The translations under genes were made by a program, and so were the position numbers. A DNA stretch of 64,000 nt from Candidatus Cybelea sp. (GTDB lineage: Bacteria; Vulcanimicrobiota; Vulcanimicrobiia; Vulcanimicrobiales; Vulcanimicrobiaceae), in assembly GCA_049585055.1 (NCBI GenBank), contig JBAUYZ010000068.1, positions 15,528 through 79,527 on the forward strand. The letters run 5' to 3'. Shown here piece by piece: positions 7,945 through 59,726 of the stretch. How positions within the stretch are numbered: the stretch's first letter is position 1; every line of letters starts with the position of its first letter. The notes below the pieces were generated by a model. The model saw only the letters and a program-made list of their open reading frames with translations. It searched no databases and was not told the origin of the DNA.

Positions 7945-8139
7945 CGGACTCCTCCATTAACGAGTATGGGAGGAGCGTAGCAGTGGTTGGAGGCGCTGTC
8001 GCCCACGTTCCGACGCTTCGGAGTACAAACGGACGGAGTTCGGCTAATGCGACGATAAGTACGGTATCCGATGGAACTGACGGCGATCGCCCGAAGATCC
8101 TTAGGCGTCGATCCGTTCTCGGATCAAGGAGCAAGGCAA

Positions 8140-9126
8140 GTGAAGGGCTTGGATTTCGGCCGCTATGTGTTAGGCGGCTTTGCTGCTGCGGCGATACTCG
8201 CGGGATGCGCCCTTCCCCTGAGCCTGTCGAAGGGTCAGGGTGACACGCAACAGCCCCCAGGCGCGTGGCTCCCGACGGCTTCTCAATCGGCCAGCCCGAA
8301 CAGACACGCCGTTTTAGCTGTGGCGAAATCGTTGCTGTATGTGGCGGATAGAACGACCGGTAGCGTCTACGTTCGAGCACTGCCGGGCGGTGCGCTCGTC
8401 CAAACGCTCTCAGGATTCCTCGAACCATACGGCGACTGCACCGACACCAAGGGCGACGTTTATATTACGGATTACGGAACGAGGGTCATTCGCGAGTACG
8501 CCCATGGTGCGGCGAACCCGATTCGCATCTTAACCGAGAGATACAGACCTTGGAGCTGCGCCGTTGATCCGCTAACTGGAGACTTGGCGGCGGCGAATGC
8601 CACGAACGAAGGTAGTCGAGGAATCGTGGCCATTTATTCGAGCGCCAAAGGCAGACCGGTTTACCGTTTTCGCAAGGGCCTTAGTTTTTTCTATTGCGCA
8701 TACGACAGCCAGGGAAACCTATTTCTCGACGGCCTCGGCCCAAGCGGAACGAGTGACGTCGGCCTGGTCGAACTTCGCAAGGGTCAAAGCGCCTTTACGA
8801 CGATCGCCCTCAATCAGAGTTTCACTTCGATCGGAGGCCTCGCGTGGAGAGGCACGCAAATGGCGGTCGGCGATCCAAAAAGTCAAATCATTTACAGTTT
8901 CAAGATGAGCGGGCAAAAGGGGGTCAAAACGGGTGGTACGCTCCTTACCGGCTCGGGCGAGCTAGGAGCGTTTTCGATCGCAAACAACGACGTCTACGTG
9001 CCGGCGGAGATCAAGGAATATCAGGGAGTCGTTCGAGTTTATCATTACCCGGCTGGCGGCCGACCGTATAGTACGTGGTTCGGTTTCGCCCTACCCACCG
9101 GTGTAGCGGTCAGCACGGTCAAATGA
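8140..9126 (+). CDS. family-A propeller-like lipoprotein (copy A1)
   Basis: A GTG start lies 8 nt after AAGGAG and aligns at nucleotide level with the start of copy A4. Lipobox AILAGC is present. Hallmark motifs are EYAHGAANP...CAVDPLTGDLA and C-terminal YHYPAGG. Confidence 0.8.
   Translation: MKGLDFGRYVLGGFAAAAILAGCALPLSLSKGQGDTQQPPGAWLPTASQSASPNRHAVLAVAKSLLYVADRTTGSVYVRALPGGALVQTLSGFLEPYGDCTDTKGDVYITDYGTRVIREYAHGAANPIRILTERYRPWSCAVDPLTGDLAAANATNEGSRGIVAIYSSAKGRPVYRFRKGLSFFYCAYDSQGNLFLDGLGPSGTSDVGLVELRKGQSAFTTIALNQSFTSIGGLAWRGTQMAVGDPKSQIIYSFKMSGQKGVKTGGTLLTGSGELGAFSIANNDVYVPAEIKEYQGVVRVYHYPAGGRPYSTWFGFALPTGVAVSTVK
8209..8252 (+). repeat. in-frame hairpin element after the lipobox codon
   Basis: CCCTTCCCCTGAGCCTGTCGAAGGGTC at 8210-8236 is identical to 9199-9225 and 13050-13076. 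It is followed by AGGGTGACACG, which resembles the intergenic repeat end TCAGGATGACACG. Confidence 0.75.
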
Positions 9127-10568
9127 GTTGGAGCGCGAATTTCGGCCGCTTAGCGACCGGCTGCTGCGTGGCTGCGGCAATGCTAGGAGGGTGCGGTGCC
9201 CTTCCCCTGAGCCTGTCGAAGGGTCCGGATGACGTGCAGCCGCCGATCGGCGTGCCGGGTGCGATGCCGCCGCGCATTAAGGATGCAGAGATCAGCCGAC
9301 CGACGAGCACGCTGAAACACATTGTGGTTGTGATTCAGGAGAATCGAACTTTCAACGATTTGTTCGCGAAGTTTCCTGGTGCCGACGGAACGACTCGAGG
9401 TCGACTTAAGAATACAAGCGGTCGCGGTTACACGTACATCGCGCTCAAAGAAGTCAATCTAGACGAGCATTGTGATTTCGGCCACGGGTACCAGGGCTTT
9501 CTGAAAAACTACGACGAGGGCGCGATGGATGGCTTTGGCCTGGTGGGCAATAAGTGTAACGGTAATCACCGAGCAGCATACCAGTACGTAAATCCTTCGC
9601 AGATTCAACCCTATTGGGACATGGCCCAGCAATACGTTCTTGGCGATCATATGTTTCAGACACAAGGCAGCGGAAGCTTTACTGCCCATCAAGACTTGAT
9701 CGCCGGGGCAACCATTATCGATCCGTACAAGACTGTAAGTCTGGTGGACTTTCCGACGCACACGCCGTGGGGCTGTGACGCGCCGCCGGGAAGCACGACG
9801 CCGAAACTGATTTGGACTGGCTCGCAGATTGTGAGCGGCCAAGGGCCGTTTCCGTGCCTCGGCTACTCAACGCTGCGCGATCTCCTCGATGCTAAAGGCG
9901 TGACGTGGAGGTACTACTCGCCCCCGATTCTAGGCCATCAACAACCTGAGGGTCGACTCTGGAATGCATTCGACGCGATCGACGCCGTACGGCACAGCAA
10001 AGAATGGGGCACGAACGTCACGTTTTCGAACGCTCTAATCTTTAAAGACATAACGAAGAACCAACTGCCGGCAGTGTCGTGGGTGATTCCGGATCGCGAG
10101 GAATCGGACCATCCGCAGTCGCCGTTCGGCGACGACGGCCCGTCATGGGTGGCGAGCATCGTCAACGCCATCGGAACGACGGCCTATTGGAACAACACGG
10201 CAATCGTCGTCGTGTGGGACGATTGGGGCGGTTTTTACGATCAGGTTTCGCCGCCGCTCACCGATCACTGGGGCGGCCTCGGATTTCGCGTGCCAATGAT
10301 CGTCGTTTCGGCCTATGCGCGGGAGCATCATAAGGGACAGCCCGGTTACATTACGCATACCAATTATGAGTTCGGAAGCATCCTGAAGTTCATCGAGCAC
10401 ACATTCGATCTGGGCACGCTGCATACGACCGATGAACGCGCCACCGGCATCGGCGACTGCTTCGACTTCACGCAGTCGCCGCGCACGTTCACAAAGATTC
10501 CATCGAGCAAGACCACGGAGTACTTCCTGCACACGCCGCCGTCGCAACTGCCGGTCGACACGGAATAG
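9123..10568 (+). CDS. phosphoesterase-family lipoprotein (PF04185; phospholipase C / AcpA-like acid phosphatase), PE1
   Basis: Motifs present: IVVVIQENRTFNDLF, SDHPQSP, GPSWVASIVNAIG, VVWDDWGGFYDQVSPP and FRVPMIVVSAYA. The ATG at 9123 overlaps the A1 stop codon (ATGA). Confidence 0.9.
   Translation: MSWSANFGRLATGCCVAAAMLGGCGALPLSLSKGPDDVQPPIGVPGAMPPRIKDAEISRPTSTLKHIVVVIQENRTFNDLFAKFPGADGTTRGRLKNTSGRGYTYIALKEVNLDEHCDFGHGYQGFLKNYDEGAMDGFGLVGNKCNGNHRAAYQYVNPSQIQPYWDMAQQYVLGDHMFQTQGSGSFTAHQDLIAGATIIDPYKTVSLVDFPTHTPWGCDAPPGSTTPKLIWTGSQIVSGQGPFPCLGYSTLRDLLDAKGVTWRYYSPPILGHQQPEGRLWNAFDAIDAVRHSKEWGTNVTFSNALIFKDITKNQLPAVSWVIPDREESDHPQSPFGDDGPSWVASIVNAIGTTAYWNNTAIVVVWDDWGGFYDQVSPPLTDHWGGLGFRVPMIVVSAYAREHHKGQPGYITHTNYEFGSILKFIEHTFDLGTLHTTDERATGIGDCFDFTQSPRTFTKIPSSKTTEYFLHTPPSQLPVDTE
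9198..9237 (+). repeat. in-frame hairpin element after the lipobox codon
   Basis: The same 27-mer as at 8210 and 13050. It encodes ALPLSLSKGPDDV between GCG and QPPIG. Confidence 0.75.
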
Positions 10569-10604
10569 CTAGTCTTTGCACCGAGCGGCTAGGCCGCGGC
10601 GGGC

Positions 10605-10871
10605 TTACGGCGCGAAGCCGTTACCATAATAGGCCGCATTCGGTGTTTTGAGGTGCCCCGCGCCAAGCGCGGTTATCACTTTTCCGTGATCGACATCAAC
10701 CTCGAGAGCTTCTGCGGGCTCTGAAGAGCTTTGGACTACGGCCCAGACGTGGTTGTGGTAAGTATGAAAGTGGCAGTTACCATTTCCAAAGCCGTAGCCC
10801 GGTGGGAGATCAATCCTATGCGACGTTTTGTACCAGTCCTTGCCGATTGTGACATAGGCGATTTTGTTCAA
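10605..10871 (-). CDS. hypothetical 88-aa protein
   Basis: ORF only, with no recognisable motif. It could be a decayed tail of the gene at 10944-11525. Confidence 0.3.
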   Translation of the reverse strand: MNKIAYVTIGKDWYKTSHRIDLPPGYGFGNGNCHFHTYHNHVWAVVQSSSEPAEALEVDVDHGKVITALGAGHLKTPNAAYYGNGFAP

Positions 10872-10943
10872 TCGACCAAAGACTAGATGCCGATTCGATG
10901 TCGTGAAGCCGCATTACTTGTGGGGGAAATCCCGATTGCATTA

Positions 10944-11525
10944 CTATCGTTGTGTACAAAACTTTGCCACTGACGGGGATACCCGCCATGGTAGCGGTGC
11001 TAGGCGATTTCTTAGGACCTTGTAAGTATGCTCGAAGCGCGTTGAGCCATAGGGATACCTGACTATGGCCTGCTGGAACCCTCCGGCCGATTCACTTTCA
11101 ACGTAAAGGTTGTCGTCAACATCAACCGTCATCGTAGAAGAGAACCCGGGCGGATGATATTCGGCAATTTGGTAGTCAAGGCGATGCGTATACTCGCGCA
11201 CGGAGGAGAAGTTGTTCTTGGTGAACACGTCTGCGTAGACATGCCCTCGGCTGTCGGTGACGACGTCGACCGGGGCAAGAGTCTTGAAGGTCTTTTCGGC
11301 GACCTTATTGCCTGCTGGATCGAACGCGATGATAGCGTGCAGTCCAGGGTCGGCAACGTACAGGTAGCTGGAAACCGCGCCGGGCTCGGCGTGCGCTGCG
11401 ATCGCGGAGGTTTGCGGAACCTGGCCGGTCGCGCCGATCGGCGGCTGGGCTCCGGCGCAGCCCGCCAGCATCGCCACAGCCATACCGCTGCACAATGTGT
11501 AACGGCTAAAATGCAAGTTCTTCAT
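10944..11525 (-). CDS. short family-A-related lipoprotein (copy A2, 193 aa, possibly truncated)
   Basis: It has the leader AMLAGCAGAQPPIGATGQVPQ, followed by YLYVADPG...REYTH...VRYPYG blades. It ends at roughly half the family length. Confidence 0.55.
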   Translation of the reverse strand: MKNLHFSRYTLCSGMAVAMLAGCAGAQPPIGATGQVPQTSAIAAHAEPGAVSSYLYVADPGLHAIIAFDPAGNKVAEKTFKTLAPVDVVTDSRGHVYADVFTKNNFSSVREYTHRLDYQIAEYHPPGFSSTMTVDVDDNLYVESESAGGFQQAIVRYPYGSTRFEHTYKVLRNRLAPLPWRVSPSVAKFCTQR

Positions 11526-11579
11526 ATGCCTTGCTCATTGATCCGTGAATGGATCGGCGACCTCGAATTAGCGCGCATC

Positions 11580-12646
11580 CTATCCGTGCGGAGCGCGGCT
11601 GATCGTCACGCCCAATAAGCCGCTCAATTTGGGTACTTTTTTCGTTGGGCGGCCTGCTGCCGGATAATGCCAAAAGCCAAGTTGGCCTTCGACATGCCCC
11701 GTCGGTACGAGAACCGCATTTCCCTCGATCCAAGACTGAACTAGGCCATGCGCCAACCATTTCCTAAGTTTCGTGGTCCCCACTATCGTTGCCGTCGAGC
11801 CGGAAAAGCTCAAGCGATGAAGTTCGTATGATCTCTTATCTTGCTCCGCCAGGCTGATATACTTTCCATCCCATTGGATCTGTCTCGGTTCGGTGATGCT
11901 CTTGCGTAAGCTGAAGGTCGAAAACGAGCTGGAGCCTTTCGGAAGGTCCGCGAGATATATCTGATCGCCGCCTCCCGTACCGTCAACGAAGAGATTCCCC
12001 TTATCGTCGTAGCCGCAAAAATAGTAGTTTGAGAATTCGGGGTCCCGATAGACGGTTGGAGCGCCCGTTGCCTTCTTGTAGATCGCCACGTACCCTGGAC
12101 CACCGACGCTGTTGATGCTTGAGACTGCAAGGTTTCCGGTTAGTGAATCAACTGCGCATCCGAATGGCCACGTTTGCTTCTCAGGGAACGTTTGAATTGG
12201 TTGACTTCCGCCGTGCGCGTATTCGTAGACGTAGCCTTGCTTTCCGCCGTCGAGCGACGCCACGAAGACATCACCGGATGAGTCTGAGCACAGCCCCTGT
12301 TGGGACAGCGTATTGGCCGGCGCAAAGGACTCGATGAAGCGTCCTTCTGGGTACGATAAGATGTCAATAGCATCGCCCGAGGAGGCGGCGTAAATTAGGT
12401 CACCGGTGGTTTGACGAACAAGCTGAGGTTGCATTGGAGACGCCTGGAAGTAGTCTCTGCGCGCGCAGCGATCGGCGACTGCGTTCCCCCGCACCCTGCC
12501 AGAATTGCCGCAGCAGCAAAGCCGCGTAGATGAAATGAGAAGGCCGGTCCCCAAAAGGGCGACTTGCTAAAAGCGCCTTTGCGCACTCGAAGTGCATTGA
12601 AAGGGGACCGACGCATGAAGCAAAGCATAGCAGACCCGGGACGCAA
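11580..12646 (-). pseudogene. family-A lipoprotein (copy A3) with signal peptide and body in different frames
   Basis: The body ORF 11580-12554 contains YEYAHGGSQP...CAVDSLTGNLAV and WHYPAGG. The lipoprotein leader (GFAAAAILAGCGGTQSPIAA) sits in ORF 12395-12646. The two frames meet at a (GC)4 tract at 12459-12466. Confidence 0.7.
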
Positions 12647-12976
12647 AACAAAGCCTGCGCGGCGACCTGCAATTCAGCGAGCCGGGTTCGCGATCGGGGC
12701 CGACGTCAGCGACAATTCAGCGAAATCTGCGTGCTTGCCCGCGTCGCGCTCGAGGCGGGAACGCACTCCGAGCCGGTCACTAAGAGCAGCCAACGCTTGC
12801 TGCGAAAACCCCGTATAGCCAGCTATATGCCGAAAGCCGTGGCCAGCGTCGTTGCCGCCGCAAAGAGAAGCGAGGAAAAGGGCCGCGCCGCCACGCGCGA
12901 TGTCGCGCGGAGCCTGGGGGCTGAGCACCGAACGTTCTTAACCGCCGGTCCGTTCATGCAGCGAGGAGCAATGCAG

Positions 12977-13987
12977 ATGAAGAGCTTGGATTTTAGACAC
13001 TACGTGTTAGGCGGCTTTGCTGCTGCCGCATTGCTGGCAGGGTGCGGCGCCCTTCCCCTGAGCCTGTCGAAGGGTCAGAGTGACACCCAGCCGCCGATCG
13101 GCGCGCCGAGCGCGATGCGGCAAAGTCGCGCAATCGCTACGCACGCCGAGCGCAGCAGATCGTGGATGCTGCCGGAAGCGAAGAGCGAGGACTTGCTTTA
13201 CGTCTCAGACTATCAGAACGGAGTAATCGTCCTCTCCTACACACCGCCGCGGTTAAAGTACGTAGGATTCCTCTCTGAGCCGCAATGGGGCGAAGGCGAG
13301 TGCGTCGACAAAGCTCAGAACGTTTTTATCACCGGTAGCGCATATGACATTGTAGAGTACGCACACGGCGCGACGACCCCGAAAGCGATCCTAACCGATC
13401 CATTTGCTCTTCCCTTGAGTTGTTCTGTCGACCCAACGACCGGAAACCTCGCCGTCGTTGGCTACCCCGATCAGTTTCACAAAATTTACGGAGCTGCAAT
13501 CTTCAAAAAGGCGCGCGGGAAGCCCACGCTCTACGAGGACACAGGCTTCGCTGCTTTCGCGTGCACTTACGATAACGAAGGTAACCTGTTTCTCGACGGC
13601 AGCCTAACGAGCAGTGTCGCCATAGCTAAGTTGCAAAAAGGCAGTAGCACCTTTACAAACATTCCGCTCGAGCAATCGTTCAATGCGGTCGGCGGTATAC
13701 AGTGGGATGGTCAGTACGTCGCGGTTGGCGATTACTACAATGCAGTGATTTATGAGTTCGAGATCAACGGAAGCAGCGCGACGAAAGTTGGCTCCACGCC
13801 TTTAGGCGGCTCGGGTACGGTTCTACAGTTCTTCATTGACCGTGGCAGAGTGATCGTGCCCAGCACCTTTCAAAATTACTCCGGTTTCGTGAAGATCTTC
13901 GACTATCCAGCGGGCGGCGCAGCCAAGAGAACGCATGACGTTGGCAGCCCTAACGGAACCGTCGTTAGCCGCGCGCGACGCCACTAA
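12977..13987 (+). CDS. family-A propeller-like lipoprotein (copy A4)
   Basis: The ATG lies 8 nt after GAGGAG. The leader is MKSLDFRHYVLGGFAAAALLAGCG. Hallmarks EYAHGATTP...CSVDPTTGNLAV and FDYPAGG are present. Confidence 0.85.
   Translation: MKSLDFRHYVLGGFAAAALLAGCGALPLSLSKGQSDTQPPIGAPSAMRQSRAIATHAERSRSWMLPEAKSEDLLYVSDYQNGVIVLSYTPPRLKYVGFLSEPQWGEGECVDKAQNVFITGSAYDIVEYAHGATTPKAILTDPFALPLSCSVDPTTGNLAVVGYPDQFHKIYGAAIFKKARGKPTLYEDTGFAAFACTYDNEGNLFLDGSLTSSVAIAKLQKGSSTFTNIPLEQSFNAVGGIQWDGQYVAVGDYYNAVIYEFEINGSSATKVGSTPLGGSGTVLQFFIDRGRVIVPSTFQNYSGFVKIFDYPAGGAAKRTHDVGSPNGTVVSRARRH
13049..13088 (+). repeat. in-frame hairpin element after the lipobox codon
   Basis: The identical 27-mer (13050-13076) followed by AGAGTGACACC. 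It encodes ALPLSLSKGQSDT. Confidence 0.75.
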
Positions 13988-14233: not shown

Positions 14234-15211
14234 TCACTTGAGGCTAACCGCTTCTCCGGACGGCGCTTGGTCGGAAAAGCTTTTGACCGGAGAACCACCG
14301 GCGGGAAACCGCCAGAACCCGAAGGCTCGTACCGAGTCATACGCGATCGGCCCGATAACCGTGCTACCCTGAATCCAAAATTGCGCGCGTGCGTACGAAA
14401 GTTGGAGCGTTGTCTTGCTGACTTTCGTTCCGGAGCTTCCACTCAGCGCGAAGCGATAGATGACCGATGGGCTAGAAGAGCCCGTGCCGAGGTCTGCGAT
14501 TGCGAGGTATTTCCCATCCCACTGCATCGAACCCGCGGCGCTGATAGTTTGATCGAGGGTTATCGTCGTAAAAGTCTTGCTGCCCTTTTGCAGCTCCGCG
14601 AGCCTAAAGCCTCCGCTGGAGCCCCCTCCATCAACAAAAAGGTCGCCGTTCTTGTCGTATGTACAAAAGGTAATGGATTGCATGTCGGGATCTGCGTACG
14701 ACTTGGCGTAGCGCCAGCCTCGCTTTTGGCTGTACGGGAAGATGACGATCCCGCCTCCGAAGCCCTCGGTGACGGCCAGAGTCTCGCTGGTCGGGTCCAC
14801 CGAGCAGTCAACAGCCGCGTACGGATCGTTGAGCGTAACCTTCGGCGTTATTGCACCATGAGCATAAACCAGTATCTGCGTCCCAAAGAGGCCTGCCGGG
14901 ATAAATACGTTATTCGCCCTATCAGTGCAAAGATAGAGCCCACCGACTCCGAGCGAGCCGAGCAGACCGCCGCGAGGATACGTGTAGACGTTGACTTCAT
15001 TCCCCAGTGCGATGTAGAGAAGGTCGCGTCCCTTCGCCTCGGGCCGCATCCACGATCCGCCATGCCCGGCGTGCATTGCGATCGTGCCGTTTTGCGGCAT
15101 CGAGCCTGATCCTACGATCGGCGGCTGCGATCCGCCGCACCCGGCCAGCATCGCCGTAGCGATGAAAATGCTGAGCGCAACGTGGCCACAATCTGAGCTC
15201 TTCACCTGCAT
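14234..15211 (-). CDS. family-A propeller-like lipoprotein (copy A5)
   Basis: The leader is AMLAGCGGSQPPIVGSGSMPQ. Hallmarks VYAHGAITP...CSVDPTSETLAV and WRFPAGG are present. Confidence 0.85.
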   Translation of the reverse strand: MQVKSSDCGHVALSIFIATAMLAGCGGSQPPIVGSGSMPQNGTIAMHAGHGGSWMRPEAKGRDLLYIALGNEVNVYTYPRGGLLGSLGVGGLYLCTDRANNVFIPAGLFGTQILVYAHGAITPKVTLNDPYAAVDCSVDPTSETLAVTEGFGGGIVIFPYSQKRGWRYAKSYADPDMQSITFCTYDKNGDLFVDGGGSSGGFRLAELQKGSKTFTTITLDQTISAAGSMQWDGKYLAIADLGTGSSSPSVIYRFALSGSSGTKVSKTTLQLSYARAQFWIQGSTVIGPIAYDSVRAFGFWRFPAGGSPVKSFSDQAPSGEAVSLK

Positions 15212-15548
15212 TGCTCCCTCGCTCCGATAAATCGATAGGCGGCTTGGAACATTCGGCGCTTAGCGCCGAGCCCCCGCAGGTAATGGGCATCGTGATCGCA
15301 TGTGTATTAAGTAGGCGCGTTCGTAGGGCAGGCTGTTCAAGCGATCGCAAGGGGTATCGCATGACGTTGTGCCAGCTGCGCGCCCGGAGGCTAAAAGCGC
15401 CGCGGAGCCCTGCGCGGCCATAGTCGCGGCTACTTATCGGATGTTGCGAATGGGGCCATTGTAAAGGCAGCGCTGCAATGCGACACGTTGAGATGCTTAG
15501 GCGAGCCGGCTCGTACGAACTGCGCGATCAACGCGTCGGTACAGGGCG

Positions 15549-15846: not shown

Positions 15847-16410
15847 TTGAAACAACAAAATGGGATAGGCGGGGCGAAGCAAGGTCTGACCGCTGCATCA
15901 TTGGAGGCGACAAGCCGAATGGGAAGCGAGGAAACCCAAGGGGACTACATCGGCCGGGTTAAGCAGTATCAGAACTGGTACGATGGCAAGGCTGTGAAAT
16001 GCAAATCGCGGTATCTCTCCATGCGGGTTATCGCCGTTGTGGGAGCTCTGCTCGTTCCGGTAACCGTGAATTTACCCGACATCTCGCCTCACCTCGCCGT
16101 TGGTAAGCCTGTCAGCACGCTGTTGGGAATTGTAATCGCGGCCACCGTCTCTCTGGAAGGTGTGTATCACTACCGCGAACAGTGGAAGAACTACCGCTCG
16201 ACCGAACAGTACTTAGGTCGCGAGCTTGTCTATTACGAGACCGGTACCGGACCTTACGATCATATCACCGCCGAGATTGCATTCCGGCTTCTCGTAGATC
16301 GCGTCGAGAGGGCGATTGCTGCGGAGAACGCATCGACTTTGAGCGTGATGACACTGGCTAATACCCAGGGAGGGTCAGCGTCATCCTCTTTGACCCCGCC
16401 GGGCGGCTAG
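15847..16410 (+). CDS. DUF4231 / SLATT-family two-TM protein
   Basis: KQYQNWYDGKAVKCKSRYLSMRVIAVVGALLVPV is followed by a second TM segment and then YHYREQWKNYRSTEQYLGRELVYYETGTGPY, which fits the DUF4231 pattern. The real start may be the ATG at 15919. Confidence 0.65.
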   Translation: MKQQNGIGGAKQGLTAASLEATSRMGSEETQGDYIGRVKQYQNWYDGKAVKCKSRYLSMRVIAVVGALLVPVTVNLPDISPHLAVGKPVSTLLGIVIAATVSLEGVYHYREQWKNYRSTEQYLGRELVYYETGTGPYDHITAEIAFRLLVDRVERAIAAENASTLSVMTLANTQGGSASSSLTPPGG

Positions 16411-17780: not shown

Positions 17781-17877
17781 CGTTCGTCCTTCGTGGTTCG
17801 TCCTTCGTCCTTCGACTCCGGCGCTTCGCGCCTGCGCTCAGGATGACACAGCTTGGCGCCTGCGCTCAGATGACACA
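17781..17877 (+). repeat. REP/MITE-like intergenic element (CCTTCG xN, CCTTCGAC, hairpin, GCTCAGGATGACAC; 1.5 copies)
   Basis: The sequence reads ...TCCTTCGACTCCGGCGCTTCGCGCCTGCGCTCAGGATGACACAG CTTGGCGCCTGCGCTCAGATGACACAG. Confidence 0.85.
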
Positions 17878-25200: not shown

Positions 25201-25246
25201 CGTCCTTCGACTGCGCTCGCTTCGCTCGCTCCGCTCAGGATGACAC
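25201..25246 (+). repeat. REP/MITE-like intergenic element
   Basis: The sequence is CGTCCTTCGACTGCGCTCGCTTCGCTCGCTCCGCTCAGGATGACAC. Confidence 0.85.
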
Positions 25247-28211: not shown

Positions 28212-28290
28212 GTCCTTCGCCCTTCGACTACGCGCCTGTGGCGCTACGCTCAGGATGACACGCGGCTGTGGCGCTACGCTCAGATGACGC
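28212..28290 (+). repeat. REP/MITE-like element (1.5 copies)
   Basis: The sequence is GTCCTTCGCCCTTCGACTACGCGCCTGTGGCGCTACGCTCAGGATGACACG CGGCTGTGGCGCTACGCTCAGATGACGCG. The core GCGCC-tgt-GGCGC forms a hairpin. Confidence 0.85.
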
Positions 28291-29690: not shown

Positions 29691-29930
29691 TGTGGTTCGT
29701 GGTTCGACTACGCTCCCTGCGGTCGCTGCGCTCACCATGACACGGCTGCGGTCGCTGCGCTCACCATGACACGTTGGGGGTCGCTGCGCTCACCATGACG
29801 CGGCTGCGGTCGCTGCGCTCACCATGACACGTTTGGAGCTATGCGCTCCTTCGACTACGGCGCTGCGCGCCTACGCTCAGGATGACACATGCGGTACTTC
29901 AGCGCTGCGCGCCTACGCTCAGGATGACAC
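29691..29930 (+). repeat. compound repeat: about 4 tandem units of variant GGTCGCTGCGCTCACCATGACAC, then 2 standard GCGCCTACGCTCAGGATGACAC units
   Basis: Read directly from the sequence. The units abut one another with no unique spacers. Confidence 0.85.
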
Positions 29931-32741: not shown

Positions 32742-33776
32742 TTGTCTGTGAGAGCATTCCTGGTTCGCTGCTTCACCACGGTCGTCGTTGCCGCGGCCCT
32801 GACCCTGCCGGCCGTCGCGGCAACCCAGCTCACCGGTGCCGGATCGAGCTTCGACTACCCGTTTTTCTCGAAAGCCTTCTACATCTATAGTGAGAAGAAT
32901 CCGGAGGCGACGGTCAACTACCAGTCGATCGGCAGCGGCGGCGGCATCCAGCAGTTCACCGCCAAGAACGTCGACTTCGGTGCGACGGACGTGCCGATGA
33001 ACGCCGCGGAGCTCGCGCGCGCCGGTCAACCGGTGCTGCAGATACCGGTGGCGCTCGGCGGCGCGGCGGTCGCTTACAACGTACCCGGCGTGACCGCGAC
33101 GATTCGGTTGACCCGCCAGGTGCTCGTCGACATCTACCTGGGCAAGGTGCTCAAGTGGAACGATCCGCAGATCGCCAAACTGAACCACGGGGTCAATCTT
33201 CCCGACATGCCGATCGTCGTCGTGCACCGTTCCGATGGCTCGGGAACCAGTTATATCTTCACCGATTTCTTGAGCCGGGTTTCGGCCGAGTGGAAGAACA
33301 AGGTCGGCGTCGGTAAGAGCGTTTCGTGGCCGGCCCCAAGCGCGATCGGCGCCAAAGGGAACGAAGGTGTCGCGGGCCAGATTCGCAGCACCCCGGGAGC
33401 GATCGGTTACGTCGAACTGGCGTACGTCCTGGAAAATCATATGCCGGCGGCGATCTTGCAGAATCGCGCCGGGAAGTGGGTTGGCTGCACTCCCGAGAAC
33501 GTCGCGGCCGCCGCGGCTACCAAACCGAACGTGAGTCCCACGAACTTCTCGATCACCGACGCAGCGGGCGCGAGCTCGTATCCTATCTCGGGCTACTCCT
33601 GGGTCGTAGTCTACAAGAAACCGGCGGACGCAACGCGCGCCAAGGCACTCTACGACGTGCTCTCCTGGCTGGTCGGTCCCCAGGGACAATCGAATGCGAA
33701 GTCGGTCGACTACGTACCGTTGCCGGTAAACGTGCAGAACGCGGCCTCGGCAACGCTACGCCAAATGCAGCGCTGA
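32742..33776 (+). CDS. pstS: phosphate ABC transporter substrate-binding protein
   Basis: Motifs GAGSSFDYPFF, GSGGGIQQF and RSDGSGTSYIFTDFL are present. The likely start is the GTG at 32748, 6 nt after AAGGAG. Confidence 0.93.
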   Translation: MSVRAFLVRCFTTVVVAAALTLPAVAATQLTGAGSSFDYPFFSKAFYIYSEKNPEATVNYQSIGSGGGIQQFTAKNVDFGATDVPMNAAELARAGQPVLQIPVALGGAAVAYNVPGVTATIRLTRQVLVDIYLGKVLKWNDPQIAKLNHGVNLPDMPIVVVHRSDGSGTSYIFTDFLSRVSAEWKNKVGVGKSVSWPAPSAIGAKGNEGVAGQIRSTPGAIGYVELAYVLENHMPAAILQNRAGKWVGCTPENVAAAAATKPNVSPTNFSITDAAGASSYPISGYSWVVVYKKPADATRAKALYDVLSWLVGPQGQSNAKSVDYVPLPVNVQNAASATLRQMQR

Positions 33777-33780
33777 TTGC

Positions 33781-33976
33781 CGTTCGCCCTTCGTCCTTCG
33801 CCCTTCGACTTCGCTCGCTACGCTCGCTGCGCTCAGGATGACACAATTCGAGGTGACACGTTCGAGATGACACGTTTGGGATGACACGTTTGGGATGATA
33901 CGTTTGGGATGATACGTCCGAGATGACTGGTCCTTCGACTCCGCATCGCTTCGCGATGCTACGCTCAGGATGACAC
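33781..33976 (+). repeat. REP/MITE-like compound element filling the pstS-pstC gap, including about 7 tandem 14-nt GATGACACGTTTGG-type units
   Basis: A standard unit at 33781-33845 is followed by GGTGACACGTTCGA GATGACACGTTTGG GATGACACGTTTGG GATGATACGTTTGG GATGATACGTCCGA GATGACTGG, then a second standard unit ending at 33976. Confidence 0.9.
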
Positions 33977-33977
33977 G

Positions 33978-34916
33978 GTGGTAGAGCCGCAGTTTAGGCG
34001 CGTAGCGCGTTTCGTTAGTCCCGCCGATCGCGGCTTTGCTGCGGTGGTCTACGGCGGAAGCATTCTCTTTGCAGTGTTGATCGTCGGCCTCTTTGTCGAG
34101 CTGGTGCTCGGATCGTGGCCCTCGATTGTGACGTTCGGGCCCTCGTTCATTTGGAAGAGTTCCTGGGATCCGATAACGAGTAAGTTCGGGGCGCTCCCGA
34201 TGATCTACGGGACCGTGGTGACGTCGTTCATCGGGATCATCCTGGCCGCATTCGTCGGGATCATGGCGGCCGTCTTTCTCGCCGACTTCGCGCCGCGGTG
34301 GCTCGCGACGCCGCTCTCGTTCTTGATCGAGCTGCTGGCGGCGGTCCCGAGCGTCGTCTACGGCTTGTGGGGGCTCTTCGTGCTCTCGCCGTTCGTACGC
34401 ACCGTCATCGGACCGGCGCTCCAACACGTCCTGGGATGGACTCCGCTCTTCTCGGGGCCGATCTACGGCGTGGGCCTGCTGACCGCGGGCATTATTCTCG
34501 CCTTGATGATCGTTCCGACCGTCACGGCGATCTCGCGCGACGTGATCGCGGCGATACCGCGCGACCTGCGCGAAGCCTCAATGGCGCTCGGCTCGACGAG
34601 ATGGGAGACCGCGACGCGCGTGGTACTGCCCGCCGCGCGCGTGGGAATCTTCGGAGCTTGCGTACTCGCGCTGGGCCGCGCGCTCGGCGAGACGATCGCG
34701 GTGACGATGGTGATCGGCAACCGGCCGGAGATCTCCGCCTCACTCTTCGCGCCGTCGTATACGCTGGCTAGCGTAATCGCCAACGAGTTCACCGAGGCGA
34801 CGACCAGCATTTACATCAGCGCGCTGATCGAGTTGGGTCTGATCCTCTTCGTGGTGAGCATCGTCGTCAACGCGCTCGCGCGGTTCATGATCTGGAGCGT
34901 TCGGGGATCGCGATGA
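33978..34916 (+). CDS. pstC: phosphate ABC transporter permease PstC
   Basis: SWPSI lies near the N-terminus and the EAA-type loop [14 protein letters not shown] is present. The GTG start is 7 nt after AGGA, which belongs to the last repeat copy. Confidence 0.92.
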
Positions 34917-36610: not shown

Positions 36611-36655
36611 CGCCCTTCGACTGCGCGCCTGCGGCGCTACGCTCAGGATGACACG
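36611..36655 (+). repeat. REP/MITE-like intergenic element (single consensus-like copy)
   Basis: The sequence is CGCCCTTCGACTGCGCGCCTGCGGCGCTACGCTCAGGATGACACG. Confidence 0.85.
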
Positions 36656-36683: not shown

Positions 36684-38075
36684 TTAGAAGTCGTCGTCGG
36701 GGGTGTTGTAGTCGATGGGCTGGTTTTCGAAATACGAGGCTGAGTATTTTGTTCGGATTTGCGTGAACGGACGCGGTTTGCGGTTGAAGCTGAAGCAGTC
36801 CGTGAGATCGTGCGAACGAACGTCGGTTCGTCCGAGCGATCCGAGATCGAACGTCTTCTCGATGAACTTCAGAATGCTGCCGAACTCGTAACGGACGTGA
36901 GAGACGTGCCCTTGCTTCGCATACGGCGAGATTACGATCAGCGGCACACGGAAGCCGTCCTCATAAGAGTTGTAGACCGTCGGCGGGACGTGGTCGTACC
37001 ATCCGCCCCAGTCATCCCAGATCACGAAAATCGCCGTGTTGCTCCAATACGGACTGTTGCCGATCGCGTTCACGATCGAGGCTACCCACGATGGACCGGT
37101 GCCGTTATTCTTAGCGGGATGATCCGACTCGTCCGAGCTCGGAGTGACGAACGTGACGTCGGAGAGTTGGCCGGCTGCGACGTCTTTCAAGACCTTCGAC
37201 GAGGGCCAAACTACGTTCTGGTACGACCGGCCTTGCCAGATTGGCTTGAGCGCGTCGACCGCGTGCCACTCTCCGGAGCCGTGAAACTCCTGATAGTAGT
37301 GCCAACTGACGCCCTTGACGTTCATTAGCCGGAAGATCGAGTCGCGAACGAAGCAGGGAAATACGGCCGTCGCTTCGTTTCCTTTCGGGTCGATCGTCAC
37401 GACCGTCGCGTCTTGTAGCGAATCGCATCCGCCTTGACGCTGACGCCCTTGCGGGTCGCTGGGGTTCTCGGCGGCCTTGAGGTTGGATCGATCGCTGATT
37501 GCCGACGTTGCGCTGACGATATACTGGTGCGCCGGGAAACTGGGACCCTGATTCGTCTGGAACATCCGGTCGCCGAAGGTGTACTGCCCGGCGAGGTCCC
37601 AGTACGGCTGGACGTCGCCGCGCGGCACGTACCCGTATGAAGCGACGTCGGCTCGCGGGCACTTGTAGCTGCTCTTCGAGTAACAGTTTTCGGTCTCGGT
37701 GTCAAAGCCGTCCATCTGCCCGTTGGCGTCGTCCTGCACCCAGGCCGAATGCTTGTGCGAGATATCGTAGGGTGCGGTCAGCGGAGTCGAGACGAGCTGC
37801 ACCGTCTGCCCGCGCGAGTTCTTCCCGGACTGCACGGTGTCGGCGCCCGGAAATCCGTTGAAGAGATTATCGACCGACCGATTCTCTTGAACGATGACAA
37901 CGACGTGCTTGATGCGATGCGCGTCGGGCTGTACGTCGGGCCGCAGTTGGATCAGCTGCGGGACGTTCTGCGGGGTGCCGAGCGGCGTTCCAAACGGAGA
38001 AGAACATCCGGCCGTCGCGAGCATCGCGGCAACGAGAACTGCTCCCGCTAGTCTACTTACACGGAATTGGATCAT
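36684..38075 (-). CDS. phosphoesterase-family lipoprotein (PF04185), PE2
   Basis: Lipobox ATAGC is present, with IKHVVVIVQENRSVDNLF, SDESDHP, GPSWVASIVNAIG, IWDDWGGWYDHVPP and FRVPLIVISPYA. Confidence 0.9.
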   Translation of the reverse strand: MIQFRVSRLAGAVLVAAMLATAGCSSPFGTPLGTPQNVPQLIQLRPDVQPDAHRIKHVVVIVQENRSVDNLFNGFPGADTVQSGKNSRGQTVQLVSTPLTAPYDISHKHSAWVQDDANGQMDGFDTETENCYSKSSYKCPRADVASYGYVPRGDVQPYWDLAGQYTFGDRMFQTNQGPSFPAHQYIVSATSAISDRSNLKAAENPSDPQGRQRQGGCDSLQDATVVTIDPKGNEATAVFPCFVRDSIFRLMNVKGVSWHYYQEFHGSGEWHAVDALKPIWQGRSYQNVVWPSSKVLKDVAAGQLSDVTFVTPSSDESDHPAKNNGTGPSWVASIVNAIGNSPYWSNTAIFVIWDDWGGWYDHVPPTVYNSYEDGFRVPLIVISPYAKQGHVSHVRYEFGSILKFIEKTFDLGSLGRTDVRSHDLTDCFSFNRKPRPFTQIRTKYSASYFENQPIDYNTPDDDF

Positions 38076-43170: not shown

Positions 43171-43195
43171 GCCAACTGGAATACAGGAGCAGCCG

Positions 43196-49749: not shown

Positions 49750-49817
49750 GACGCTCGCTCAGGATGACACGGGGGGCTACGCTCGTGATGACACGGGGGC
49801 TACGCTCGCGATGACAG
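49688..49817 (+). repeat. REP/MITE-like compound element (CCTTCG x4, then about 4 GCTC[AG][GT]GATGACA units)
   Basis: Read directly from the sequence. It fills the whole convergent gap between the AKR gene and PE5. Confidence 0.85.
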
Positions 49818-49820
49818 GTG

Positions 49821-58724: not shown

Positions 58725-59726
58725 ATCAGGAGCTTGGATTTTGGGCGCTGCATATGCGGCTTTGCTGCTGCGGCGATGCTTGCCGGTTGCGGTGGATTGC
58801 AGGCGCCGATAAACGTGCCGGGCGCGATGCCGCAAAGCCGGACGGTCGCACATCGCGCCGGGCGCGCCGGATCGTGGATGGCGCTGGAAGCGAAGGGCGA
58901 GGACCTGATTTATCTTTCCGAATACGCGAGCGGCACCAACGCGGTCTACGTTTATGCGTATCATTCGGGTAAGTTTGTAGGACAACTCACCGGATTCGAC
59001 ACGGCCCAGGGGCTGTGTGTTGATCGAGCCGGGGACGTCTTCGTGACTGAATTATATGGTCAGGATATCGTCAAATATGCGCATGGAGGCACGAAGCCTA
59101 AGGCACGTTTGAAAGATGCAGGTTTCGCTCCGGGTGCGTGTGACGTTGATCCGACAACTGGTGACCTCGCAGTGGCGAACTATTGCGGACAATCCGTTTC
59201 CGATTGCATTGGATCAAACGCTGGGGATCTCGTCGTCTACCCGAAAGCGCGAGGGACGCCCGAAAGCTATCACAATAAGGCCGTGTCGACTTATTTGTTC
59301 TGTGGGTACGACTCGATGGGAAACCTTTACGCTGATGGCGGCGGATCACCGGGCTATCCCGGATTCGAATTTGTAGGCCTCCGCCACCGAACCAAGAAGC
59401 TGCGTACCATTACGCTGGATCAGAGTATTTCGGGGACGGGAGGCGTTCAATGGGACGGATCTCATGTGGTGGTCGGTGACGCTTCGTATCGAATCCTCTA
59501 TCAGTTTTCGATCAATGGATCGAGGGGAACCAAGATCGGTTCGACTACTCTTCGGAATACTTCATTCGAGCAGTTTTGGATCACCCAAAACAAAGTGCTG
59601 TCGACGGCTGCTACGTACCGCAGGTCCTGGGTTCAGTTCTTCGACTATCCAGCGGGCGGCGATTACACAGGGCGATTCAACGCCCATCGCGCCTACGGGA
59701 TTACGGTTAGTCGCGCAGGGCGCTGA
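58725..59726 (+). CDS. family-A propeller-like lipoprotein (copy A9) with a non-canonical start
   Basis: Hallmarks FAAAAMLAGCGGLQAPINVPGAMPQ, KYAHGGTKP...CDVDPTTGDLAV and FDYPAGG are present. ATC occupies the position where copy A4 has ATG, 8 nt after GAGGAG. The next candidate start is TTG at 58734. Confidence 0.7.
   Translation: MRSLDFGRCICGFAAAAMLAGCGGLQAPINVPGAMPQSRTVAHRAGRAGSWMALEAKGEDLIYLSEYASGTNAVYVYAYHSGKFVGQLTGFDTAQGLCVDRAGDVFVTELYGQDIVKYAHGGTKPKARLKDAGFAPGACDVDPTTGDLAVANYCGQSVSDCIGSNAGDLVVYPKARGTPESYHNKAVSTYLFCGYDSMGNLYADGGGSPGYPGFEFVGLRHRTKKLRTITLDQSISGTGGVQWDGSHVVVGDASYRILYQFSINGSRGTKIGSTTLRNTSFEQFWITQNKVLSTAATYRRSWVQFFDYPAGGDYTGRFNAHRAYGITVSRAGR

Follow-up and report, generated by a model that had tools for sequence, protein, structure and literature searches.

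A candidate palindromic-repeat unit in frame behind the lipobox of unrelated lipoprotein genes of Candidatus Cybelea

The locus and its lipoprotein genes

The window analyzed here, a 64,000-nt stretch of a Candidatus Cybelea sp. contig, holds three lipoprotein genes, A1, PE1, and A4, which carry the same short DNA unit in frame downstream of the signal peptide and lipobox (Table 1). A1 has no Pfam match and clusters with other A-family proteins in the tree. PE1 starts at ATG 9123, overlapping the A1 stop codon (ATGA), which corrects its earlier placement, and the NCBI annotation of this gene (P0005) begins only at the GTG right behind the unit. As predicted, four paralog leaders (A5, A3, A2, and A9) run from GC(G/A)G straight to Q(P/S/A)PI.

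The 27-mer CCCTTCCCCTGAGCCTGTCGAAGGGTC had been reported as identical at three sites, and an exact search places it at 8210-8236, 9199-9225, and 13050-13076, all on the + strand and with none expected; the window holds no extra copy at 1-3 mismatches, and 100 shuffles gave 0 matches. The original prediction described a 27-nt element and a full unit of roughly 40 nt. The full "long-form" unit measures 39 nt, with the 27-mer as its conserved core, and is located one to two codons past the lipobox Cys. The leaders read ...ILAGC-ALPLSLSKGQGDT-QQPPG in A1, ...MLGGCG-ALPLSLSKGPDDV-QPPIG in PE1, and ...LLAGCG-ALPLSLSKGQSDT-QPPIG in A4, so that the proposed position between lipobox GCG and QPPIG holds for PE1 and A4, where the unit follows Cys-Gly, but not for A1, where it directly follows Cys. 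The flanks of the three copies, described as diverged, are only 73-76% identical to each other. Read directly from the sequence, the other two + strand frames of the unit run into TGA; with one stop-free frame on this strand, all surviving copies therefore read ALPLSLSKGQDDx.

Table 1. Coordinates of the genes, units, and empty sites in the window.
Feature	Position	Strand	Remarks
A1, family-A lipoprotein gene	8140..9126	+	beta-propeller-like; GTG start, signal peptide, lipobox LAGC
Long-form unit copy 1 (A1)	8209..8247	+	GCCCTTCCCCTGAGCCTGTCGAAGGGTCAGGGTGACACG = ALPLSLSKGQGDT; directly after Cys codon TGC 8206-8208
PE1, PF04185 phosphoesterase lipoprotein	9123..10568	+	PF04185 match E=8e-54
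Long-form unit copy 2 (PE1)	9198..9236	+	GCCCTTCCCCTGAGCCTGTCGAAGGGTCCGGATGACGTG = ALPLSLSKGPDDV; after TGC GGT; orthologous empty site in L020
Paralog without unit	10944-11525	-	GCAGAQPPIG
Empty site in paralog 10944-11525	11448..11453	-	codons GGA GCC (Gly-Ala) between GCA and QPPIG
Paralog without unit	11580-12554	-	GCGGTQSPIA
A4 leader module	12905..13187	+	5'UTR, signal peptide, lipobox, QPPIG...SWMLP
A4, family-A lipoprotein gene	12977..13987	+	NCBI annotation P0125 has leader and insert in frame
Long-form unit copy 3 (A4)	13049..13087	+	GCCCTTCCCCTGAGCCTGTCGAAGGGTCAGAGTGACACC = ALPLSLSKGQSDT; after TGC GGC; clean 33-nt indel vs. empty leaders of L046, L047, L050
Paralog without unit	14234-15211	-	GCGGSQPPIV
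Empty site in paralog 14234-15211	15128..15133	-	codons GGA TCG (Gly-Ser), replaced by unit in filled leaders
Intergenic unit	17809-17849	+	
Intergenic unit	25204-25246	+	
Intergenic unit	28220-28261	+	
Intergenic unit	29848-29888	+	
Intergenic unit	33801-33844	+	
Intergenic unit	33932-33976	+	
Intergenic unit, example	36613..36654	+	CCCTTCGAC, GC-rich hairpin, GCTCAGGATGACAC
Intergenic unit	46002-46053	+	
Intergenic unit	49712-49745	+	
Family-A paralog, empty leader	58734..59726	+	GCGGLQAPIN; same strand as filled genes

A repeat family behind the unit

Judging by its sequence, the unit is a member of a short palindromic repeat family common to several bacterial phyla. A short form, the 27-nt GCCCTTCGACARGCTCAGGATGACATG, fills the same post-lipobox site in other genes, and in L048, L049, and L031 the identical site holds GCCCTTCGACA(A/G)GCTCAGG(A/G)TGACATG. 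This short form is the exact join of the two ends of the window's intergenic CCTTCGAC...GCTCAGGATGACAC repeats (n=9, 34-52 nt), and alphaproteobacterial plasmids have it as well, there as the terminal inverted repeat of hairpin elements between genes. The family's basic unit of ~25 nt, GCCCTTCGACARGCTCAGGATGAC, borders intergenic hairpin elements of ~110-130 nt outside this genome, where it serves as their terminal inverted repeat; the ~25-mer is present in inverted pairs on plasmids of Nitratireductor and Phyllobacterium as well as in IMG/VR contigs, and the long 25-mer lies in repeat arrays of Anaeromyxobacter and of Proteobacteria and Actinomycetota MAGs. Throughout the family the ends are constant and the interior is variable. 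In the long form, the core of the short form lies reversed and nested within its own ends, CCCTTC + rc(CCCTTCGACAGGCTCAGGG) + TCAGGATGACA. The claimed match between insert ends and intergenic repeats holds, and more strongly than first proposed: the unit tail TCAGG(G/A)TGACA agrees with the 3' end of the intergenic repeats, and CCTTCGACAGGCTCAGG, contained in the reverse-complemented 27-mer, fits the intergenic pattern CCTTCGACNNGCTCAGG.

Derived state of the filled leaders

Leader comparisons support the insertion proposed originally, in that the filled state is a derived insertion of a discrete DNA unit and not an ancestral peptide. The closest orthologs of PE1 (L020) and A4 (L050), each at 82% identity, lack the insert and have a matching leader in which GGC TCG or GGA TCG occupies the place of the unit. 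Filled and empty leaders align with a clean 33-nt indel, the unit replacing two codons between Cys-Gly and QPPIG, where the DNA specifies the start of the mature lipoprotein. In the A-family tree the 9 filled genes (7 long, 2 short) are scattered, every one a lone tip beside an empty sister, against 91 empty genes, and among PF04185 homologs the unit was found in PE1 and no other. Among close orthologs the leader is long, short, or empty: the orthologs L031 (short) and L008a (long) have flanks that are ~97% identical, and A4 (long), L058 (short), and L050 (empty) all share mature-domain identity of at least 82%. The filled state is both derived and unstable. The opposite polarity, with ALPLSLSKG ancestral and the other copies arising by deletion, could be suggested by the absence of Gly-Ser codons from all filled leaders if this were taken alone. 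It is scarcely credible, being contradicted by the nesting of every filled tip among empties, by the unfilled PF04185 homologs, by a unit that is near-identical across genes with flanks ~25% different, and by the same DNA outside leaders and outside the phylum.

Distribution and mobility

Across Eremiobacterota the unit was found at 28 distinct post-lipobox sites, distributed over at least 12 protein families, and further in-frame copies lie in YbeY, a tricorn protease, and DUF885. Beyond the three genes of the window, dozens of filled lipoprotein genes belong to related soil bacteria. Most copies came from searches requiring the core or its peptide, which biases counts of intact copies upward, and a representative search reveals copies carrying 1-3 amino-acid changes. 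All lipoprotein copies (28/28) are located at +1/+2 after Cys, including those in leaders without QPPIG homology (F4 family, L042, L009). A final GACATG or GACGTG is present in 20 of these 28 vs. 1 of 8 non-lipoprotein copies, and GACAC is the ending of the intergenic units in the window. This concentration suggests either that the lipoprotein copies form a lineage of their own or that the final codon is under selection.

The unit had been described as a mobile or recombining mini-element. Of this, an inserted, discrete DNA unit of a repeat family is supported, but active mobility is not, as no target-site duplication was found and the ~46 window ORFs scanned contain no transposase or recombinase domains. 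An active site-specific element, with an end-recognizing transposase or recombinase encoded elsewhere that inserts or swaps units 3' of TGC or TGC-GGC, would make each filled gene an independent event and the tether a safe harbor, because an in-frame insert there is harmless. We regard this as unlikely, even though it would accommodate the identical site despite great differences in signal peptide and downstream sequence, no fewer than 8-9 separate gains within one family, the mixture of states among close orthologs, the constant ends of the family, the use of one site by its short and long members, and the ready-made long form in other phyla, owing to which an origin inside the leader is not required. 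Besides the missing duplication and enzymes, non-lipoprotein copies have no conserved left flank beyond C|G, and those in the three other genes and between genes indicate that insertion is not limited to lipoboxes. Moreover, two codons are absent in every filled leader, for which inheritance from a donor leader is the simpler account, and 27-39 nt is very small for recognition sites at two ends.

Conservation of the unit as DNA

The pattern of change supports conservation of the unit at the DNA level rather than as a peptide. In a sample collected by mature-domain homology, the core is changed at 4/189 sites (2%), compared with 16/84 in the tail and 93/378 in the flanks (19-25%; p=3e-6 and 6e-14). 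Third-codon positions are variable at 10/264 in the unit vs. 13/62 in conserved flanking codons (p=3e-5), and in a peptide-degenerate scan that left ~14 positions free, 24/24 matches were at most 3 mismatches from one 36-mer. Two unlike peptides, ALPLSLSKGQDDM and ALRQAQDDM, occupy one site, which argues against a selected peptide and counters the suggestion that the unit was domesticated as a lipoprotein tether. Lipoprotein sorting signals act at +2/+3 (Lol sorting), the position of the insert, and its presence in frame every time and in so many protein families could be read as the spread of a useful sorting signal or tether-length cassette. Such true domestication is very improbable, however, as peptide selection does not predict conserved synonymous sites or a quite different peptide at the same position, the same DNA recurs in intergenic arrays and other phyla, most paralogs and orthologs have no insert, and most copies keep Gly as the +2 residue.

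The predicted pairing of CCCTTC with GAAGGG makes a hairpin possible, but the fold is not significant against shuffles (z-scores of -1.9 when the unit is folded by itself and of -1.2, +0.3, and -0.8 with surrounding sequence). No compensatory changes were seen in the stem, in which, by reading of the sequences, half of the changes preserve wobble pairs and half are disruptive. The short form has no hairpin, its motif lies on the opposite strand, and Rfam gave no match. A meaningful hairpin structure was therefore not borne out. The core may still be a cis-acting nucleic-acid signal under selection, either a dsDNA site bound by a conserved protein or an mRNA feature immediately past the signal-peptide codons. 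The latter might be a pause hairpin, or else an internal ribosome-binding site (GAAGGG) whose ATG/GTG would give a leaderless isoform. This is consistent with a 27-nt core ~10 times slower to change than its own tail and flanks, with rare codons (CTT, GGT, GAT) kept despite a 60% GC genome, with the coincidence of the hairpin and the conserved core, with the final ATG/GTG codon of most lipoprotein copies, one of which the NCBI pipeline picked as the PE1 start, and with conservation of the motif across phyla. We nonetheless find it quite doubtful in view of the folding, Rfam, and stem results; a short form that has no hairpin and its motif on the opposite strand makes a shared RNA function unlikely and leaves only a dsDNA site to suit both forms, and it is hard to see a use for a leaderless, cytoplasmic version of a secreted phosphoesterase or propeller protein.

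Probable spread through leader modules

A leader module of ~230-280 nt is 70-83% identical on unrelated gene bodies, both in this window and in genomes elsewhere. A4 and L046 have closely similar leaders but unrelated downstream ORFs, and L058, with a different signal peptide, shares 86% identity with A4 over the gene body. The alternative offered originally, a leader cassette exchanged between unrelated genes, is supported by this recurrence of a ~230-nt module. Leader-module exchange is probably the route of the unit's spread, and the insertion and leader-cassette readings thus complement each other.

With a confidence somewhat better than even, we favor an explanation that combines a repeat-family unit, leader-module spread, a passenger peptide, and DNA-level constraint or homogenization. 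The unit would be embedded in a leader module carried by many lipoprotein genes, its main route of spread, and the module would recombine between genes via leader exchange or gene conversion, with occasional fresh insertions elsewhere, such as those in YbeY, the tricorn protease, and DUF885. The unit's 11 encoded residues (7 in the short form) may be a passenger that provides a longer disordered tether and has no function of its own, and the slow change of the 27-nt core may reflect DNA-level constraint or homogenization against the repeat family, not peptide selection. Counting against this explanation are the replacement of 6 nt instead of a clean addition and the search for an insertion mechanism, which gave neither a target-site duplication nor, in the window ORFs scanned, a transposase. 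The distinctive ending of most lipoprotein copies and the upward bias in the counts of intact copies also weigh against it. The fixed site, even where QPPIG homology is missing, strains conversion as the only process and fits a site preference. It should also be noted that the core is far more conserved than its own tail, which could mean that it has a function; that would contradict the passenger status. Overall, repeat DNA now forms part of the flexible tether of these lipoproteins.

Comparison with known systems

REP/REPIN elements are mobilized by RAYT transposases (PMC3116915, PMC3337134). Like the unit, they are GC-rich imperfect palindromes of 20-45 nt with many copies per genome and no target-site duplication, and their inverted doublets form long hairpins, as this family does on alphaproteobacterial plasmids and in IMG/VR contigs. 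However, REPs are extragenic by definition and tied to one lineage and its RAYT, whereas the unit is intragenic, in frame, and cross-phylum, and no RAYT was found in the window. MITEs and the intragenic small mobile sequences of enterobacteria, ERIC and RU-1/2/3 (PMC2759123, PMC2229807), are likewise non-autonomous, have inverted terminal repeats, and are sometimes translated within ORFs. MITEs usually measure 50-500 bp and have target-site duplications and a recognizable parent IS; the unit has neither duplication nor known parent, and inside genes its short form amounts to one terminal repeat and its long form to a nested pair.

PARCELs are also palindromic coding DNA in membrane-targeted proteins and lipoproteins, subject to horizontal transfer and intragenomic shuffling, but in them a 25-residue structural domain is repeated in tandem within the mature protein, unlike the single 9- or 13-residue unit from a non-coding repeat at a fixed tether site. 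The Mycoplasma variable lipoprotein genes (vsa/vrs) have site-specific recombination sites in the 5' coding region, and these systems work with a single expression site, a set of silent cassettes, and a dedicated invertase. They share with the unit a short conserved DNA site past the lipoprotein signal peptide of many genes, which could permit 5'-end exchange; here, in contrast, promoter and leader are separate for every gene, the three copies in the window are directly repeated, and no recombinase is encoded nearby among the window ORFs scanned.

The original work on Rickettsia palindromic elements (RPEs) is reportedly that of Ogata et al. in 2000. RPEs are selfish palindromic repeats found in frame inside protein-coding genes (PMC10969869). 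Like the unit, they form palindromes, are also intergenic, lie in frame in many unrelated genes, and add a conserved peptide where the protein tolerates it, with presence varying between orthologs. RPEs are, however, ~100-150 bp, Rickettsia-specific, and placed on surface loops of many enzymes, whereas the unit is 27-39 nt with a cross-phylum motif, and about three quarters of the Eremiobacterota copies found share one position, after the lipobox Cys. Our verdict is that the unit is an in-frame palindromic-repeat insertion akin to the RPEs of Rickettsia.

An insert directly after the lipobox cysteine

The window holds exactly three copies of the 27-mer CCCTTCCCCTGAGCCTGTCGAAGGGTC, and each lies, as the original prediction had it, in frame directly after the lipobox cysteine of a lipoprotein gene, two of them from family A (A1 and A4) and one a PF04185 phosphoesterase (PE1). 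Further copies with 1-3 mismatches are absent from the window, 100 shuffles gave no match, and the leaders flanking the 27-mer share only 73-76% identity. The complete unit, hereafter the long form, is 39 nt in length. By the pattern [LVI][ASTVI][GAS]C a lipobox is read from the sequence in A1 (ILAGC), PE1 (MLGGC) and A4 (LLAGC), in each case downstream of a basic N-terminus and a hydrophobic stretch. In four window paralogs without the unit, GC(G/A)G(S/A/T/L) directly joins Q(P/S/A)PI.

Features in the window (positions without prefix) and in loci from other genomes or metagenomes (L-handles)
Feature	Position	Strand	Remarks
A1 gene	8140-9126		ILAGC, then ALPLSLSKGQGDT, then QQPPG; unit in frame after lipoprotein signal peptide
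Unit in A1	8209-8247	+	27-mer from 8210
PE1 gene	9123-10568		PF04185, E=8e-54; MLGGCG, then ALPLSLSKGPDDV, then QPPIG; unit in frame
Unit in PE1	9198-9236	+	27-mer from 9199
A4 gene	12977-13987		LLAGCG, then ALPLSLSKGQSDT, then QPPIG; unit in frame
Unit in A4	13049-13087	+	27-mer from 13050
A1 stop/PE1 start	9120-9129		ATGA
Paralog A3	11580-12554	-
Other PF04185 paralogs	39282-40730, 40734-42065
Other PF04185 paralogs	36684-38075, 49821-51281	-
NHL/SGL propeller genes	42205-44170		two genes
DUF4231/SLATT_1 gene	15847-16410
Leader module	8091-8260, 9131-9270, 12905-13187, 58655-58880
Leader module	11378-11559, 15020-15277	-
Leader module, other loci	L046; L047; L020:2386-2536
Intergenic units	17809-17849, 25204-25246, 28220-28261, 29848-29888, 33801-33976, 36613-36654, 46002-46053, 49712-49745	+
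Amplified repeat ends	33780-33930, 49690-49820
Unit in aconitase gene	L001:6800-6838		reverse orientation
Short-form copies	L049:300-320, L049:415-445		one reverse-oriented
A-family gene, then PF04185 gene	L050:305-2788

The window belongs to a Candidatus Cybelea sp. MAG (Eremiobacterota), and the NCBI proteins P0005 and P0125 are identical (100%) to PE1 and A4, respectively. The A4 annotation includes leader and unit in frame, and that of PE1 (444 aa) starts at a GTG directly 3' of the unit, so that signal peptide and lipobox are lost (window 9123-9236). JGI calls for the near homologs P0006, P0007 and P0128 are also N-terminally truncated. The overlap of A1 stop and PE1 start suggests translational coupling, and the A-family/PF04185 pair may be a conserved operon because the same order is seen in L050. 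In paralog A3 the leader (..AAAILAGCGGTQSPIAA) is out of frame with the body and a clear start codon is absent; a pseudogene or a frameshift of the assembly is the probable reason. Within the 64 kb, secreted or lipoprotein families are strongly expanded: PF04185 paralogs number five, family-A propeller-like genes at least six and NHL/SGL propeller genes two. A DUF4231/SLATT_1 protein (SMODS-associated 2TM effector), which may be defence-related, is encoded beside the lipoprotein cluster.

The filled leader as the derived state

P0006 (locus L020), at 82% identity the closest ortholog of PE1, encodes ...FLAGCGGSQAPIGAQGAM and has an empty site, reading TGCGGC GGCTCG CAGGCGCCGATCGGC where PE1 reads TGCGGT, the 39 nt and CAGCCGCCGATCGGC. 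The unit is absent from all 119 further PF04185 homologs listed, and among these P0083, P0099 and P0107 have a PE1-type leader without it. Likewise, the A4 ortholog P0126 (82%, L050) has an orthologous signal peptide followed by the empty TGCGGC GGATCG CAGGCG, and alignment of the A4 leader with the clearly similar leaders of L046 and L047 leaves a single clean 33-nt gap and then six diverged bases. A neighbour-joining tree built from the mature domains of 100 A-family proteins shows seven genes with the long form and two with a 27-nt short form at the same site as single tips among 91 empty ones, each with an empty sister. Because filled genes are scattered singly among empties and have empty orthologs, parsimony calls for a minimum of 8-9 gains or for losses in far greater number. 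The orthologs without insert and the nine filled tips thus show an insertion, as had been proposed, and not an ancestral ALPLSLSKG.

Distribution across genes and genomes

An exact 25-mer scan of one genome per species returned 19 loci, of which approximately 12 are Eremiobacterota lipoprotein genes with the unit directly after the lipobox, three are Eremiobacterota loci of other context and five are repeat arrays in Anaeromyxobacter, Proteobacteria and Actinomycetota MAGs, where the 25-mer reads ...CCGCTCGCCCTTCCCCTGAGCCTGTCGAAGGGTCAGGGCGAGCGG with an 11-bp outer stem. A metagenome scan with the peptide pattern A-L-P-L-S-L-S-K-G-Q-[G/D]-D only, in any codons, gave 24 loci; in 18 the match directly follows a lipobox cysteine. 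Pooled and de-duplicated, these amount to 42 distinct copies across genomes and metagenomes: 28 at +1/+2 of lipoproteins, joined to at least 12 unrelated mature regions, and 14 elsewhere. In-frame insertions outside lipoproteins were found in YbeY (PF02130), a tricorn protease and the tether of a DUF885 protein; the same repeat therefore occurs in frame in several unrelated ORFs and in non-coding DNA (intergenic copies, arrays). One reverse-orientation copy (..VALTLRQAQGKG..) lies inside an aconitase gene of L001, on the opposite strand, and the aconitase frame shifts directly after it, which may reflect a disrupted gene or a homopolymer error; from its name, we take this MAG to be a Nanopore assembly.

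A first protein search with a 71-aa leader query gave five candidates only, and DNA scans were therefore used. Searching 31 residues of A4 with phmmer against 1.84 billion representative proteins yielded 23 real hits with at least five kinds of mature domain, several with 1-3 amino-acid changes within the insert. From the representative library, P0246 (669 aa) appears to be a gene fusion across a leader, its two A-family-like bodies being joined via an internal leader remnant (...GPHCGAFPLSLSKGQNDTQPPTGAPGA..., residues 327-351) that retains the unit. Around the unit of L002 (DATMKR010000098.1, labelled Candidatus Acidoferrum), the ~100 nt compared are identical to metagenome contigs L029 and L033. 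The matching contigs carry a gene of F4, another lipoprotein family (leader MNTTGFVK...SACG, unit, VAVAPS) without QPPIG homology, whose other copies come from Eremiobacterota MAGs; the L002 contig is likely mis-binned. Our literature search found no description of the insert, whether by sequence, by peptide or in work on Eremiobacterota lipoproteins or repeats, and no paper naming the motif.

Conservation of the core as DNA

The degenerate peptide scan left ~14 positions free, and every hit lay 0-3 mismatches from one 36-mer, with the rare codons CTT, GGT and GAT retained in the copies. Third-codon positions vary at 10/264 in the unit vs. 13/62 in the adjacent conserved QPPIG and AGCG codons (p=3e-5). 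Mature-domain homology led to seven long copies, which so form a sample not selected on unit DNA; here changes number 4/189 in the first 27 nt, 16/84 in the 12-nt tail and 45/189 and 48/189 in the 27-nt flanks (core vs. tail p=3e-6, core vs. flanks p=6e-14). Because the core changes far less than tail and flanks, it is either constrained as nucleic acid or repeatedly renewed; the tail drifts as any leader sequence would. Selection for the encoded peptide is an unlikely explanation, given the conserved synonymous sites, the presence of two different peptides at one site and the lack of the insert in most relatives.

A nucleic-acid function of the core is in our estimate quite improbable. The unit can, as had been predicted, fold through CCCTTC/GAAGGG pairing, but an RNA hairpin has poor support: fold z-scores of -1.9 for the unit alone and -1.2, +0.3 and -0.8 in genomic contexts are no better than shuffles, compensatory changes were not seen, and the short form has no hairpin and bears the motif on the other strand. 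At gathering score, Rfam 15 finds one tRNA only in the window, and E-value scans of 8150-8300 and 33700-34000 yielded no meaningful match. RNA structure was accordingly rejected as the main explanation. The original prediction is thus partly supported: insertion, membership of a repeat family and leader exchange stand, and the hairpin has poor support.

Short form, long form and a wider repeat family

Two A-family homologs carry the short form, GCG-ALRQAQDDM-QPPIG in L048 (TGCGGC GCCCTTCGACAAGCTCAGGATGACATG CAGCCGCCG) and C-APRQAQGDM- in L049 (TGC GCCCCTCGACAGGCTCAGGGTGACATG); L049 has a second, reverse-oriented short-form copy ~50 nt upstream of the start codon. The intergenic repeat of the window (nine units, 34-52 nt) has the structure CCCTTCGAC, a ~20-nt GC-rich hairpin and GCTCAGGATGACAC; linking its two ends through two bases gives exactly the short form. 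In the long form, CCCTTC + CCCTGAGCCTGTCGAAGGG + TCAGGATGACA, the central part is the short core CCCTTCGACAGGCTCAGGG in reverse complement, which explains the match between the minus strand of the 27-mer and the intergenic pattern. The suspected kinship with the intergenic repeats is thereby confirmed. At two places in the window the repeat ends are tandemly amplified, with up to four CCTTCGN heptamers 5' and about seven 14-nt GATGACACGTTTGG-like units 3'.

Beyond the window, plasmids from cultured Nitratireductor and Phyllobacterium carry unannotated ~110-130-nt elements between convergent genes, with the ~25-mer as their inverted ends. The ~25-mer also occurs as inverted doublets in AT-rich IMG/VR contigs. 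A viral vector for the unit was rejected, the long core being absent from IMG/VR and the short form present in two AT-rich contigs only (three stretches), as was plasmid carriage of the 44-nt proteobacterial long form, which has no match in PLSDB. Translations of the motif (PFDKLRMT, LRQAQDD, LSLSKG) are presumably common in spurious ORFs of many phyla, which we treated as a lead; a possible resemblance of the motif to hammerhead sequences or Tn3 ends was set aside. In the window, where GC skew is positive throughout, GATGACAC occurs 16 times on the + strand and never on the - strand, whatever the direction of neighboring genes. This count suggested a replication-strand bias and thereby a mechanism that uses single-stranded DNA, as in IS200/IS605 or RAYT, an idea dropped because other loci do not repeat the pattern: intergenic units are rare there, and in the two loci that have them their orientation is opposite to that of the in-gene copy.

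An unstable site and exchangeable leaders

The post-lipobox site is unstable, with three states polymorphic among close homologs. A4 has the long form, its closest homolog P0128 (86% identity, L058) a decaying short form (GCCCTTCGACCAGCTCAGGACTACGCACTG) and the next closest, in L050, an empty site. In L031, two tandem F4-type paralogs (SACG, unit, VAVAPS...) carry one long and one short form, and the short-form paralog is the ortholog of the long-form L008a, with flanks ~97% identical over 215 nt.

A leader module of ~230 nt, comprising a 5'UTR with GAGGAG, MKSLDFGRY..., signal peptide, lipobox and QPPIGAPGAMPQ...SWMLPEAK, recurs at 70-83% DNA identity on unrelated genes in the window and in other genomes. 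The A4 leader is close to those of L046 and L047, where a frameshift and an unrelated ORF come next (in L046 with its own signal peptide), and the A4 body is 86% identical to L058 with a different signal peptide. By these comparisons leader and body have separate histories, which makes the exchange of a leader cassette between unrelated genes, offered earlier as an alternative to insertion, also true.

Possible routes of insertion and spread

The derived state, repeat-family membership, DNA-level conservation of the core, three-state polymorphism and leader exchange are directly supported. We infer that a leader first received the unit in one or a few events, because two codons, always the same, are missing from every filled leader and 20 of the 28 lipoprotein copies end in GACATG or GACGTG (non-lipoprotein copies 1/8; local intergenic units end in GACAC). 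Spread and loss would then proceed via recombination among the many leader modules, and the peptide would be a passenger lengthening the tether by 11 (long) or 7 (short) residues. The reading frame of the unit is constant because only one + frame is open and the other two meet TGA.

The main rival is a site-specific, end-recognising mechanism, which was retained because the position is identical in leaders without flanking homology (F4 family, L042, L009) and two members of the repeat family, short and long, occupy one site. We consider it unlikely: Pfam scans of ~46 window ORFs found no transposase or recombinase domain, and flanking direct repeats are absent from all 42 copies, the unit replacing 6 nt in leaders. 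An apparent target-site duplication, TGCGGC (left)/TGCAGC (right), was rejected as the right copy is merely the (S/M)Q codons of the leader, and a shared target motif likewise, non-lipoprotein copies having only C-G in common. The loci examined showed no insertion sequence whose ends match. One-step template switching from short to long was also discarded, as no priming microhomology was found and other phyla already contain the complete long form.

A broader proposal, which we regard as rather doubtful, is that the unit belongs to a cross-phylum family of 27-45-nt cassettes, defined by their ends only (GCCCTTC(GAC)... and ...(GC)TCAGGATGACA) and maintained by a putative end-recognising machinery. 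The post-lipobox DNA would be a dedicated harmless landing site in Eremiobacterota, the 27-nt core the recognition site, and empty/short/long switching within species a (semi-)programmed variable tether on surface lipoproteins.

Significance and comparison with known systems

Post-lipobox repeat insertion is a real and well-supported finding. If our reading is true, it would be to our knowledge the first case beyond Rickettsia-type elements of a non-coding repeat systematically written into proteins, and this with striking precision, at the very N-terminus of the mature lipoprotein. It also accounts for an oddity that annotators meet repeatedly, e.g., NCBI's PE1 start after the unit with the signal peptide dropped. 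Eremiobacterota lipoprotein leaders act as exchangeable modules, and the in-gene insert is tied to a very widespread, apparently unnamed motif (CCCTTCGACARGCTCAGG) kept across phyla. Empty, short and long alleles can be tracked in metagenomes, providing a handle on the movement of tiny repeats and on lipoprotein tether tolerance.

In effect, the closest system is that of the Rickettsia palindromic elements (RPEs), repeats inserted in frame in many genes (PMC10969869). Like these, the unit occurs in frame in unrelated ORFs and in non-coding DNA, and orthologs without insert exist; it is set apart by length (27-39 nt in Eremiobacterota vs. ~100-150 bp). By analogy it would work like an RPE, of which it is not a member. 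Structurally, REP/REPIN units or solo MITE ends come closest (PMC3116915). REPs are short (20-40 nt) imperfect palindromes, and the unit has the internal inverted repeats CCCTTC/GAAGGG and CCTGA/TCAGG, although its fold reaches z=-1.9 at best. REP-like inverted doublets are seen for this family on plasmids and viral contigs and not in the window. REPs are extragenic, as are the related 34-52-nt window units, whereas the three window copies and most Eremiobacterota copies lie inside coding sequence; the REP/REPIN hallmark, a cognate RAYT (Y1/HUH) flanked by repeats, was not seen among the ~46 window ORFs scanned, none of which has a transposase domain. As to MITEs, the ~110-130-nt plasmid elements have ~25-mer ends as terminal inverted repeats, but the in-gene unit is a single end or nested pair and lacks a target-site duplication. 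The unit therefore belongs to none of the three, being too short for an RPE or MITE and not extragenic, with no target-site duplication, known transposase or Rfam family. New are its constant position in lipoprotein genes, immediately behind the lipobox cysteine, the fact that empty, short and long alleles exist side by side, the way in which the long form is nested in inverted order, and the tie to a cross-phylum motif.
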